Positions 45,001 to 51,000 of a stretch of 64,000 nucleotides of DNA are shown here, one piece after another (within the stretch, counting starts at the first letter, position 1; every line of letters starts with the position of its first letter). Origin of the DNA: a virus. Taxonomy: Duplodnaviria; Heunggongvirae; Uroviricota; Caudoviricetes. The stretch is taken from the IMG/VR virus record IMGVR_UViG_2534682157_000019; one strand, given 5' to 3'. Position numbers: made by a program.

Positions 45001-48000
45001 TTCGCGGATATTGACGTATTCACCTTCAAGACCTGGCAAAACATCAGCTTCCTGTTTTGTCGCCACGGCATGACCGCTGATTAACAAAACTTTCCACTGT
45101 TCTGGTTTTAGCCATCTGCCGCACCACTGAACCTGTCGGGAGATATCAGCGACCATCGCGTGAAATTTGGCATTTTGATCGAGATTCCGCTTGTAATCGG
45201 TGATGCGGATCGTAACGGGTTTGTCTTTATCGAGAGTTGTTGCAAGGATGGCGTTAATGGCGAATTGTTGCTGCTGCTTACTTCGGAGGAAGATAGTCTG
45301 GTTCATTATTCCCTCTCATTGGATTTTCCCAACAAAAAAGGAGCCGAAGCTCCTTTAGTTTCAGAATTCAAATTGTCTTGCCCGTAGTTGCGCCAGCATG
45401 CTTCTGGCCCTATGCACCATATAGTTGGCGGGATCAAGTTTTGCTGCTTCGCGGAGCAATGTGTCGCGAGTCCGGTTGGTTATATGACGAGTCTCGTAGG
45501 CCAGATCAAACAGTTTCCCGTAGTAATCAGAGTTCAGTTCTCTCATGACGGGGTATAGCTGCTTACTGAGTTGTTGTGCTTTTTCCATCCAGAGTTGAAC
45601 GTAGCAGAGTAGGATGATGTCTTCTGCTGTGAATTGCGGCTGAATATGAGGTTGTAGCGGTATAGCGCTTTTTTCAGCTTCACGGTCCAGAATATCCAAT
45701 ACCCAGCGACGGAACTCTTTGGCTACTGGAGTTGTTGCGAACATCGCTACCAGGTGGGCACCGCGTAGAGAGAAAATACGCACATCTTTCTCTCGTAAGC
45801 TATTGTTGATCCCGTTGAACCTCATTTTGAGGTTGATTGACATACAAGGAGTAAACTCATCCGAATTGCGGTTGTATATCTGGGTGATTTTATCGCCGCG
45901 CGAATACTCCAGTGCTGAAGCCAAAGTCGCGGCAGTGAACCACTGTTTGCCGTCGTGTTCGATCGTTTCAAGAACGTGGGATTTGAATACGAGTTGAGTG
46001 CTCATAGTTTTATGTCCTTGTATTTTTTGTTCAGAATCCCTGTGTTCAGCAGGGCGGTCGGGTACTTGAACACCGCATACAAGAACGGCCCGTATCCTTA
46101 GCCTTGCGGCTGTTTTTCGGTATACGCGCTACCCGACCATATCTGAAAAATAGACATAAAAAATCCGCATGACTGACGGGTGCGGCTTCCGCTTGTATAG
46201 GTGTGTTCAGCACCTTGGTGCGGAATATATCCCCGTTAATGCGGATTTGTCAAATCTGGCCTTAAAACTCGAATTGTCTTGCCCGCAGGCTTTTCAGCAT
46301 TGGCATGGCCCGCTGGATAACGGAACTTGACATGTCGAGACGTGTTACCTCCCTCAGTAGCGCGTCTCTGTTCTTCGTCACCATGTAGATGGTCTCAAAC
46401 GCAATGTCATACAGCTTGTTCGTGTATGAGGAGTTCAGCTCTTTCATTATAGGGTACAGGTGTTTGCTGATGTCCTGGGCTTTTTCCATCCAGAGCTGCA
46501 TGTAGCAAAGGAGGATGATTTCCTCGGCTGTGAATTGTGGCTGAATCTGCGGCTGCTGTTCGGTTTGTGTTGTTTTTCCCTGGCTGAAATAGCAGTCTTC
46601 CAGTTTTTCGAACACTTCCCATGCCTGATCAGTTTCGAGCATTTTTGCGTGACGGGCTGCCCCGCGTTCTGTCCAGAGGATGAGGTGCTTTGTACGCGGT
46701 GCAACTAAGTTACTTTGAGTAACCTTGTTCTTAAATTCCCGCAATCCAGCCCCTTCCAATTTGAAGTAGTGTTTCCCACAAACAAAACGCTCGGCATTGC
46801 GTGTATAGTTCACTTTGATGTTATTAGTTTCGGTGCCATAAAGTTGTGCCAAAAGCTCGGTGGTAATAACAGGAATCTGGTTATGGGTAATCGGGGAGAT
46901 GGTTTCAACAGAGATTTGAGTTGTCATAATGACGCCCTCTAGTGGTTTCTAAACTATCACCACCGTAAGGTTCCAATCATCGGGTGGTGAGACGCACAGG
47001 GTTGGAACTACCGGGAAACCGACCGGCGAGCTTTTCAGCTCCCCCATGCGCCCCACCATAATTCAGATGTGCGCGTGCATACGACAATAAAAAACACGCT
47101 CGCGGCGTGTGTTTGTCGCGGTCTCTATCCGGGGTTCCAATCCCGACGGCCAACTCGACCGTGCGAAGAATATAATCCCGGATAAGTGTTGTCGTCAACT
47201 CAGCATTGATGTTGTATTAATTGACAACGCTATGCACTGTTGTTATCCTTAACAACATAAATACACGGAGTTTTTATGCCATCCAGACTGTATAAAGAGT
47301 TCATTCGCCATCTTGGGGAATCCGAATACATAAGGATTAAAATCTGGGAGGTGGCTCCAGCCGTTCTTGGTAGCCGCCATAACTTCAAATACAGCATGGC
47401 TTACGTTGTTGATGGTGTTTGCGTCATGCGCTACGACAACGAAAGAGGTAAAGGCGACCACAAACACATTGGTGCTCAGGAAATCAGTACCCACTTTGTT
47501 TCCATCGAGCAACTCATTGCTGACTTCCTCCATGATGTAGAATCCATTCGCAGAGGTGCCTGATATGAAAACAGTTACAATACGTATTGAATCAATGGAT
47601 GCTTTCACGGCAGATGTGTTGTCTGCCTTTAAAGCGGTTGCCGAAGGAATGACGTCAAAGAACGAAAGCATCGTTTCATTCCCAGACTGGCAAATGATGC
47701 ATAAAGTGCTTACCCCTAAGCGCATGGACATACTCATGGCGATGACTGGTGCCGGAGAACTGTCAATCCGTGAGATTGCCGCTCTGGTCGGGCGTGACGT
47801 AAAAGCCGTACACACGGATGTAACCGCACTGATTAGCAACGGCCTCCTGGAAAAAGGAGAAAATGGAACATCTTTTCCGTATGACGACATCCACTTTGAT
47901 TTTACGCTGGGTAAAGCTGCGTAAAATTCACCGCGCCGTCATTCTGGCGGCGCTTTACCCCAGAGAAATATCAATCACCGGATTGCCACATCCCACTCCG

Positions 48001-51000
48001 GCTCCTGCCATCTCAAATCCGGTGAATCATTTCTCGCCGGAATAACCATTACGTCCTTTTCCCTCCGCTCCCTTTCTATCGCCATCACAGCCAATGCTGC
48101 AACCATGATGTATTTTTGCTCGTCGGTTCCCGTTTCATAACGGTGCATGAGGGTAAACTCGGGGCGATCAGTAACCTCAATGATTTCGTTAATTTCTTTA
48201 ATTTCGAGAGGAATATTGATTTTGTTGTTCACGTCATAACCTCAATATTAAAAATTCGTTAACATTAAATTTTGAATACCGGATGTTTACCCGTGTCCGG
48301 CGCACGACCTCACGTTGCAGCGTGAAGGTCTCCATTTTTCAAAACAGAGCAACAATGGAGGATAAATGGACAAAAAACTCAATCAGGCTCGCTGGAATTT
48401 TCATTACGAAACAGCCCGCTCAAATTACTTTCTTGAATGCTTCGGGGACTCTCTGGCTATTAAAGAGGGGTATCCAAGGACTATTTATGGCTTTGACGCA
48501 ATATATCTTTATCTTGCCGGAAAATACGGATGGACTATTGCTCAGTGTCGTTCAATGTCGACTGAGGACATTCGCCTTGCTCTCGCAACAGAGCTAGAAG
48601 CATGGACACCCCCTCAAGATGTGATGATTGATGAGTGTCTCTCCCGGAATGATTGATGTTGTTAAACTCAAATATCTTGCTCCTGGCAATAGCCTCAACG
48701 GTATTCCAGAATACCGATGGTTCTGTTTTCTGCTCTGTTTTATCAGCAGCAGAAAGTAACGTTTCTGCGCCTTTCTCAAATTGTTGTTGATACTCATCAA
48801 GCCAGGTCAGATCAGGAGTAATTCGTACCAGTTCGAGTGAATATTCCATGGCATCCGTCATGTATTCTTTCGGGATGCCATTTTCTTCAAGAATTTCCTC
48901 AACCTTCTGGCGAATAACCGGAACCAGGAAAAGCAGTTTTGTTTCACGATAGCCAAGTAGTTTTTCCAGATCGCGAACAGCCTCTTCTGTCTGGCGCTTG
49001 CCCATCATGGATTGATGCTCTTTATTCAAATGCATGTTTAGCTCCTGTTAAGCCAATACACGGCTATGCAGACTGTTATTTGCCTGTGCGCAACGTCTAT
49101 AGAATGCCAGCACACGCTGCATTGCTTCACTGTTACGGCACTCGCGACAAATTGTGTTGTAGCGTCTGTCGTAGCGCCGTATTTCCCCATCGGGTAATGC
49201 CCGGATAAGACCGGGATCAACGACAACCGGTTTCTTTGCCTTTGCTCTCGAGAGTTTTTTGCGGGCATTTTGCCAGTCCTTACGCGCCTGCTCAGACGGG
49301 AATAATCCGTAACCTGAATTGTAAACATCACCACTTGCGACCAGTTCTCTGGCGAGAGTGTTTATGTAATACCTTGATGCACCAGTTTTAGCTTCCAGAG
49401 CCCGTAACGTCTCACGTCCACTCTGGCGCACAAATTCAACGATCTGCTCCTTAATTTTTTCCCGCTCTTCGGGTGTAAATACTTTTGCCATAAGCTCTCC
49501 AGTTATCACTTTTCCGATGCAATACTGCTGGATGAATCGGTAATCTGCATGACAATTTCCCGGTGTTTATTCAGCTCACGTAGTGCAGCACAGACACGCT
49601 CCCACTTCTGGACCTGTTTTTTGGCGCGACGAAGTTCACGACTGGCGGCCCGTAGAGGTGGAAGGGGCACTGCACCAGCATATTTTTCGGTGAACGACGG
49701 AACATCCTGGATAAACTCATCTGTACAGGCCTTTGCCGTGCCCTCTGACATCAACGGAGAACGATTCAGTTCGCCGCCTGACGCGCTGTTTTCTGCTTCG
49801 TGGTGTGATTTCTCATCCTGCGATGATGACGCGCTCAAATCGCCGTTTTCAACGCCAGGCACTTTATAACGGAATTTTCCCTTGATAGACACGCGCACCA
49901 GGCGCCCCGTTGCTGTTACTACCGCCAACGTGGAAGCAACCTTACGAGTGGTAACGCCGAACTTACCCGCTATTTCTTCACAGGTTTTAGCCCCCTCCTG
50001 AGCGATAAACTCAATCATCATGTCAGCGCTAACTTTTGGAGCGACCTCTTCGGTTACCACATCCGGCGCTTCAGGTTGTAGTGCCTGCCCTTCGGTTACC
50101 CCGGATTCACCTTCGACAGCCAGAAACCAGGTGTGACCCGTTTTATCAACAACGCCATTTTTTTTGAGTTCCCACAGTTCGTTGAGAACTTCTTCACGGC
50201 TGATATCAAGCCGCGCCGCCAGTTCAACAGAATTGGCTTTTCCCATCGCTTTCAGTGCATGCAATACGGTTTCCATCGAAAATTTACCTCGTCAAAAATT
50301 CTCACATACCCTGACGCCCAACGTTTGATCGCCAGCTCTCCCAGTTAAAATTCACCCAACGACCACCGTTCATGGTCATACGGTCCATCACCCGCTCGCC
50401 GAGGAGTGTGCTCATAGCTGCGTGATTCAGGTTCGTCAGCATCCCGACACTGCGCAGTGATGCCGTTCTGCGGTCGACGATCTGGTTCAGTATGACCTGC
50501 TCGTTGCGCGTATCCCGCTGCATGCCAATTTCATCAAGGACCAGAAGGTCTACCCCGCAAAGTTCCTGTAAAAATTTCTCACCAGACTTGCCGTTGTCGT
50601 AGCCGTCATGCAACACACTCATGACATCGGACACGGTGACGATAATCACGCTTCTCCCCTTCGCCATCAGCCAGTTGCCAATCGCTGCTGCAAGGTGATT
50701 TTTCCCGGTGCCAGGTTTACCGCTGAACACGAAATTCGTGCAGCCGGTATGCAGTTCTGCCGCGATGGATTTTGCCAGACTCAGAGCATGGCGCTGACCG
50801 TCGTTCTGCACCCGGTAGTTCCCGAATGAGCACTTCCTGTGAAGCGGCTGGATGCCCGAACGATTCAGGATTTTTTCAACCCGCGTCTGGTGATTCTGGC
50901 GGTTAACTTCCTCGCTGCGCTTCCGGCCCTCAGCCAGTTGCCATTCCCGCCATTCGTCGGTCGTCCGGAACGGTGCTGCCACGTGCGGTGGTGCCAGACG

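Follow-up and report, generated by a model that had tools for sequence, protein, structure and literature searches.

The 64,000-nt stretch of viral DNA recorded in IMG/VR as IMGVR_UViG_2534682157_000019 (Caudoviricetes), here called the window and analysed at its full length, is by sequence comparison a lambdoid prophage of Escherichia coli that converts its host to production of Shiga toxin (Stx) 1c. At 47200-47928 on the plus strand it carries a 729-bp putative toxin-antitoxin cassette composed of operators, a promoter and two genes, tumE and tumA, the second of which encodes a winged-helix protein. The 1.8 kb round this pair is 100% identical to chromosomal prophages in nine complete E. coli genomes; Escherichia phage phiSTEC1589-Stx1c matches it at 99.9%. 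In the JNEC-KY202 annotation one strand reads stxB1c, stxA1c, Q, ninH, rusA, DUF1364, ninE, ninB, a BRO antirepressor and an ORF6N antirepressor; a TumE family protein and an HVO_A0114 family protein come next on the opposite strand, after which the first strand resumes with two hypothetical genes, DUF977, DUF1627, a DnaC-like ATPase, an O-like replication protein, cII and cro. An earlier note on this DNA had placed the locus between the replication and nin genes and had described the pair as opposed to everything around it. The gene order of the Stx1c prophage bears out both points, since all annotated flanking genes from Q/nin to O/P lie on the minus strand.

The first gene, tumE (47276-47563, plus strand), is preceded by a GGAG Shine-Dalgarno sequence at 47267-47270 and encodes a 95-amino-acid (aa) putative toxin of the TumE/DUF6516 family, so that the 95-aa plus-strand gene proposed earlier is confirmed. 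Its product matches the Pfam TumE profile PF20126 with an E-value of 2.1e-14 and 53.7 bits over positions 6-81 of 81, the curated cut-off being 23.4 bits; PF20126 is likewise present in all 120 of the TumE homologues listed, and the identical protein bears the RefSeq name 'toxin-antitoxin system TumE family protein'. The AlphaFold2 model (predicted local distance difference test, pLDDT, 94.8) has six antiparallel strands in a meander and, after them, a single long C-terminal helix. The family fold has been described as alpha+beta, with two helices packed on a sheet of seven antiparallel strands (PMC10584680), and measured against it the model has one strand and one helix fewer, i.e. it is a shortened version. 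Across the homologue alignment H35, K38, Y39, D54, N55, E56 and H64 are invariant and the run R57-G58-K59-G60-D61-H62 nearly so (conserved motif YDNERGKGDHKH). On the model these conserved residues map to one loop and three successive strands, where they probably form an active or binding site. No match to TumE was found among PDB sequences by phmmer, and none to its model among PDB structures by Foldseek at E<0.001; that no solved structure is convincingly alike agrees with the original description of the family (PMC10584680).

The second gene, tumA (47565-47924, plus strand), encodes a 119-aa winged-helix protein of the HVO_A0114 family, a putative antitoxin and autorepressor. It matches PF25212 (HVO_A0114) with an E-value of 1.3e-24 and 86.2 bits against a curated cut-off of 27.6 bits, with weaker MarR/ArsR-type similarity also present, and RefSeq calls the identical protein 'HVO_A0114 family putative DNA-binding protein'. 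The earlier note had read it as a 122-aa winged-helix protein starting at GTG 47556 and overlapping tumE by 8 nt. The winged helix stands; the start is better placed at ATG 47565, because an AGAGGTG Shine-Dalgarno sequence (47552-47558) precedes it, PGAP chooses it, and alignments with homologues from the 80 genomes considered below start at the first residue of the 119-aa reading. The GTG start has been replaced on these grounds. As the ATG sits 1 nt past the tumE stop (TGAtATG), the two genes abut and do not overlap, and the most likely length is 119 aa. In the model of TumA a winged-helix domain is predicted with confidence at about residues 40-112, and its nearest solved folds are the ArsR, CadC, HlyU and MarR regulators, whereas the N-terminal 35 residues are of low confidence (pLDDT below 50 at residues 22-33), as would be expected of a toxin-binding segment. 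A poorly ordered N-terminus is usual in antitoxins.

Compared with a 77%-identical copy in another prophage (locus L083), 38 of 59 differences in tumE and 56 of 82 in tumA fall at third codon positions, and in both genes synonymous codon changes outnumber non-synonymous ones; on this comparison of coding sequences tumE is under purifying selection. In the protein collection, at least 1,000 contigs carry TumE in exactly this sequence, and at least 1,000 carry TumA likewise. The PHROGs entries for both proteins say only 'unknown function', the deposited phage record calls both genes hypothetical, and TumA is mis-named 'glycosyl transferase family 1' in many NCBI records. No mention of HVO_A0114 or PF25212 was found in the searchable literature.

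The system to which the pair belongs has been validated experimentally. Durairaj et al. (Nature 2023, PMC10584680) established the TumE-TumA superfamily by showing that DUF6516 proteins from six gammaproteobacteria abolish growth of E. coli and that their cognate partners rescue it; the Allochromatium tepidum TumE lowered incorporation of 35S-methionine, a ribonuclease (RNase) activity was proposed and not proven, and unrelated antitoxin families were found to serve different TumE clusters. The pair in the window resembles that superfamily in its full-length TumE domain, its bicistronic arrangement with a predicted DNA-binding partner, its lack of a relative of solved structure and its residence on mobile DNA. 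The differences are several. The validated genes were synthesised as 398-461-bp fragments and have a small partner, whereas this TumE is shorter, at 95 aa; DUF6516 lies predominantly downstream of its partner in clusters 1, 2, 4 and 6, whereas here the toxin gene comes first; and one cluster-1 partner is a remote RelB homologue, whereas the partner here is a 119-aa HVO_A0114 winged-helix protein (for the published members, PMC10584680). The pair is, moreover, hosted by a Shiga-toxin prophage. Given that the same paper allows other gene orders, toxin-first order marks a sub-architecture and does not exclude the pair from TumE-TumA. No validation of a toxin-first TumE form with a winged-helix partner was found in the searchable literature. 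The family to which the object belongs dates from 2023 and has its label in RefSeq already; it is no new kind of system.

A rival reading would make the locus no toxin-antitoxin module. It might instead be a transcriptional module of two proteins, a winged-helix repressor accompanied by a harmless TumE-like co-regulator or ligand sensor, as could be argued from the short form, which is without part of the validated TumE fold, from the full size of the ArsR/MarR-like partner, and from the literature found by search, which holds no report of toxicity for this subfamily; 'DNA binding' is also the commonest DeepFRI term for several TumE clusters (PMC10584680). That reading is unlikely. The whole Pfam TumE domain is matched at more than twice the cut-off, and an invariant motif of charged His, Asp, Glu and Lys residues is typical of an active site and not of a scaffold; the genomic setting of the pair, taken up below, counts against it as well.

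Upstream of tumE lies a predicted sigma-70-type promoter (47221-47249, plus strand), with TTGACA at 47221-47226, a 17-nt spacer and TATCCT at 47244-47249, matching the consensus at 10 of 12 positions and preceded by an upstream TG. Promoter-like sites are no more frequent than chance in the 2-kb stretch (3 found, 3.2 expected from shuffles). Two dyads of the form GTTGT-N8-ACAAC lie over this promoter, as had been noticed before: the right half of operator O1 (GTTGTATTAATTGACAAC, 47211-47228) includes the -35 box, and operator O2 (GTTGTTATCCTTAACAAC, 47239-47256) encloses the -10 box. They are the only exact matches to that pattern in the window, where 0.07 would be expected, and none of 100 shuffles reached two. 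Two exact palindromes over the -35 and -10 of the operon's own promoter are the arrangement by which autoregulated type II modules are recognised. A third GTTGT, at 47188, was considered as part of the operator and rejected, since it belongs to a flank that is conserved beside unrelated cassettes and has no partner half-site at a distance of N8. Downstream of tumA, within the conserved flank, a GC-rich 9-bp hairpin followed by UUUA (47933-47953, plus strand; -16.5 kcal/mol, z -2.46) is a candidate for the tumEA terminator, an uncertain one that failed a simple terminator scan.

The same layout recurs far beyond this prophage. A pattern scan of one genome per species gave 593 confirmed relatives, from which 80 loci were kept. 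All 80 come from other species, and in 79 of them a TumA homologue lies directly downstream of tumE on the same strand; the sole exception is a locus cut by a contig end, so that toxin-first order holds for the window and for 79 of 79 informative loci. The gap between the genes is usually 0-27 nt and reaches 113 nt where the protein aligns partially. The host labels span Alpha-, Beta- and Gammaproteobacteria, Geobacter, Desulfuromonadales, Desulfobacteraceae, Syntrophobacteraceae, Nitrospirota, Holophagales and, once, Vulcanimicrobiota, the last three labels belonging to metagenome-assembled genomes. A profile search of 1.84 billion cluster representatives returned 2,035 relatives at E<=1e-3, of which 1,054 reach E<=1e-10; the matches listed are mostly 90-105 aa long.

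Upstream of tumE these loci share a TGTTG(G/T)-N8-(TT)GACAACA dyad that carries the -35 and a second dyad, GTTG(G/T)-N8-(A/C)CAAC, round a -10-like hexamer; the O1-type dyad over the -35 is seen across Proteobacteria and beyond, and the position of the promoter relative to the dyads is kept. Within -90 to +12 of the start, the relaxed pattern G[TA]TG-N10-CA[AT]C occurs at least once in 71 of the 80 loci and at least twice in 51, a density of 15.2 per kb upstream against 0.076 per kb in the remainder of those loci (about 200-fold). In enterobacterial relatives, drift affects the spacers and flanks and leaves the half-sites invariant, a pattern that marks a site bound by protein. It is mainly from these conserved dyads that we infer repression by TumA of its own operon. 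In 48 of the 80 loci the promoter-proximal dyad abuts an in-frame ATG (..CCAACATG) and holds the -10 box in its spacer, which implies that the tumE messenger RNAs there are leaderless; enterobacterial copies, that of the window included, have a 19-nt leader with a Shine-Dalgarno sequence.

The borders of the cassette emerge from blastn comparison of the window with two sibling prophages (loci L082 and L084). The prophage of strain 2013C-4282 matches the window at 98% identity as far as 47199, where the match breaks off, to resume at 47929; that of strain 2013C-3033 is 96% identical from 47930 on, its left homology, of about 70%, ending at 47198. Between these junctions the former carries ParD, a hypothetical gene and HigA, and the latter a RelE/ParE toxin followed by a helix-turn-helix (HTH) protein, in each case on the same strand as tumEA. 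The unrelated prophage at L083, which has ash and Rha genes, shares with the window only 47209-47958, at 77% identity. Among the complete E. coli genomes listed in a search with the two flanks joined, the slot holds TumE/TumA in 9, ParD/HigA in 3, RelE/ParE with HigA in about 14 and RelE/ParE with an HTH protein in 3. Given that the flanks are shared while the fillings differ, the mobile unit is 47200-47928; and given that other toxin-antitoxin modules sit between the same conserved flanks, the slot is a toxin-antitoxin exchange site, a hot spot for type II modules. The earlier note had drawn a single accessory island at 46928-48660. Only its central 47200-47928 is exchangeable; the rest does not form one unit with it, and the 350 bp upstream are mainly the leader of an antirepressor gene, described further on.

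A further parallel is offered by type II systems with an HTH antitoxin. HigB-HigA and MqsR-MqsA resemble the pair in having toxin before antitoxin, a DNA-binding antitoxin and palindromic operators over the promoter, and HigBA-type modules fill the identical slot in sibling phages. They are unlike it in both components: TumE has neither sequence nor fold similarity to the RelE/ParE or MqsR toxins, and TumA is a winged-helix protein and not an Xre/Cro-type HTH. That every other filling of the slot is a toxin-antitoxin module speaks further against a harmless TumE-like co-regulator, as does distribution: relatives of tumEA lie on 71 plasmids, mostly of Acetobacter and Rhizobium, and addiction modules would be expected to show just such a presence on plasmids and in prophages.

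Family membership, gene pairing, purifying selection, operator conservation, the cassette borders and replacement by other toxin-antitoxin modules are all observed, and 47200-47928 is probably a moron-type cassette with a self-regulated, toxin-first type II TumE-TumA pair. The autoregulated toxin-antitoxin operon that the earlier note had suggested thus finds support in the Pfam TumE and HVO_A0114 matches, the RefSeq names, the modules in the sibling slots and the conserved dyads. In such a system TumE would be a translation-inhibiting toxin, as is suggested by its family (PMC10584680) and by what is generally known of type II modules. TumA would be the antitoxin, holding TumE through its flexible N-terminal 35 residues, and a TumA dimer would bind O1 and O2 through the winged helix and repress its own sigma-70 promoter. 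The cassette may well be expressed from the prophage in the lysogen, which is to be expected of a unit with its own sigma-70 promoter and an orientation against early-right transcription. Its biological role could be addiction of the prophage or host cell or the exclusion of other phages, or it could be tied to induction.

A first possibility for that role is anti-phage defence of the lysogen, in which shut-off of host transcription by an incoming phage would let labile TumA decay and so free TumE. Several type II toxin-antitoxin systems defend by such release of the toxin. The moron position in the prophage, the promoter of its own, the orientation against phage lytic transcription and the location in a hot spot for toxin-antitoxin cassettes are all compatible with defence as the main role, and it may be entertained tentatively. 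Against it, the cassette is rare (of 5,426 complete E. coli genomes 21 have it, and of 50,697 phage records one does); the literature found reports no defence activity for TumE-TumA; and PADLOC has neither a model for TumE nor a match to it. In PADLOC-DB v2 TumA shows only weak winged-helix similarity to the Csa3/CasR regulators (E about 1e-6). Membership in a catalogued defence system was rejected for want of a PADLOC match to TumE, and the small defence operon named earlier as an alternative is left without support. The profile searches that the earlier note had proposed as a check thus gave both Pfam families above their cut-offs and no PADLOC match to TumE.

Stabilisation of the prophage, or coupling to its induction, is a second candidate: prophage loss, or antisense read-through from the early-right promoter while the prophage is being induced, would lower TumA and free TumE. 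All cassettes in the slot point against early-right transcription, and the left border of the cassette is only 1-2 bp away from the -35 box of the promoter that serves the neighbouring isrK/C4/antirepressor region; the plasmid-borne relatives, too, suggest a role in addiction. The case is purely positional, however, and because different cassettes with different operators share the site, conserved cross-talk with the isrK promoter is unlikely; the GTTGT at 47188, which might have tied the two regions together, lies in the conserved flank and lacks a partner half-site. A role of either kind is rather doubtful.

Finally, TumA might serve in counter-defence by neutralising a TumE-type toxin encoded by the host. 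'Orphan ParD and HigA antitoxins' were noted in the Stx phages phi346 and phi349 in a 2025 study that discusses such a function and leaves their role open (PMC12502783). In the window, on the contrary, the toxin gene is intact, conserved and under purifying selection beside tumA, and TumE genes are rare in E. coli, so that counter-defence is very improbable here.

New in the present analysis are the operator and promoter layout shared across phyla, the toxin-first, winged-helix-partner sub-architecture, mostly leaderless, and the exact exchange site in the Stx prophage. A bolder synthesis would make the short TumE and winged-helix TumA a distinct and widespread sub-architecture with a cross-phylum GTTGK-N8-MCAAC code over the -35 and -10, mostly leaderless, and with a dedicated exchange site in Stx and other lambdoid prophages next to the isrK/C4/antirepressor promoter, where the activity of the cassette would be coupled to induction or phage exclusion; taken as a whole, that synthesis is a long shot. 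The locus extends the TumE-TumA family to Shiga-toxin-converting prophages of pathogenic E. coli and provides it with a concrete operator and promoter that lend themselves to testing. The recombination slot at which lambdoid prophages exchange toxin-antitoxin modules is also located exactly (47199 | 47929), which should be useful for the annotation of Stx phages. And a TumE pair native to E. coli offers a tractable means of working out the biochemical mechanism of the toxin.

The left neighbour of the cassette is a regulatory region in its own right. On the minus strand, in flank conserved with sibling prophages, a promoter-like site TTGACG-18-TATATT (47169-47198) precedes an isrK-like small RNA (sRNA) with a candidate C4 a1-b1 target element (47089-47162; Rfam RF01394, 54.9 bits against a gathering score of 50), which ends in an intrinsic terminator at 47094-47110. 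The gene for a C4 antisense RNA of the P1 immI type follows (46980-47063, minus strand; RF01695, 71 bits against a gathering score of 45, full length), and after it an antirepressor gene with ORF6N and P22_AR_C Pfam domains (46262-46927, minus strand; PHROG 377, anti-repressor Ant, E 5e-84). Two copies of the repeat GGTTCCAATC, at 46969-46978 and at 47133-47142, are complementary to the segment 46999-47008 of C4. A C4 antisense RNA with complementary target sites thus lies upstream of an antirepressor gene, and the minus strand of 46980-47198 is the leader of that gene, of the kind known from P1 immI (c4 - icd - ant) and Gifsy-1 isrK-orf45-anrP (PMC4825925). The likeness, which comprises the isrK-like RNA with its terminator, C4, the antirepressor and the minus-strand orientation, is confined to the left 350 bp, a neighbour of the cassette and not part of it, and the match to the a1/b1 family itself (RF03163 c4-a1b1, 23.5 bits) is below the threshold of 46.7. 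The cassette starts immediately past this promoter's -35 box, with about 22 bp between the -35 boxes of the two promoters.

The two minus-strand RNA genes that Rfam recognises within 46980-47162 had been missed by the earlier reader. A tRNA reading of the GGTTCCAATCC-like motifs at 46960-47145 was rejected, since ARAGORN reports none and the motifs are elements of C4 and its target sites; ARAGORN finds no tRNA anywhere in the window. The antirepressor gene has a tandem companion at 45361-46005 (minus strand), the two having Bro-N (45361-46005) and ORF6N (46262-46927) N-terminal domains and a common P22_AR_C C-terminus. An Rfam match to sRNA-Xcc1 lies between them (46048-46138, minus strand), and a second lies at 765-853 (plus strand).

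To the right of the cassette the earlier note had listed two further small genes. One is an 85-aa hypothetical gene (47975-48232, minus strand; PHROG 8371, unknown function) which belongs to the conserved phage flank, outside the module, and is retained beside other toxin-antitoxin cassettes in sibling prophages. The other, a 96-aa plus-strand ORF (open reading frame) at 48366-48656, is of uncertain coding status. It has a GGAGG Shine-Dalgarno sequence 4 nt upstream and a weak, below-cut-off match to the ECs1072 family, and PGAP does not call it. It overlaps by 122 nt the 3' end of a convergent 166-aa ORF (48535-49035, minus strand) which matches PHROG 25397 over its full length and the C-terminal region of whose product is conserved as protein in phage TL-2011c; from that phage the 96-aa ORF is missing by deletion, and more distant phages have lost most of it in the same way. 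A 96%-identical sibling has two substitutions in the 96-aa ORF and none in the overlap, too few to choose between the two ORFs.

Elsewhere in the window an Rfam match to the sok antitoxin RNA (4018-4192, plus strand, 111.5 bits) suggests a type I toxin-antitoxin locus of the hok/sok type, and the sRNA STnc100 is present in two tandem copies at 41111-41324 and 41386-41597 on the minus strand (198 and 139 bits).

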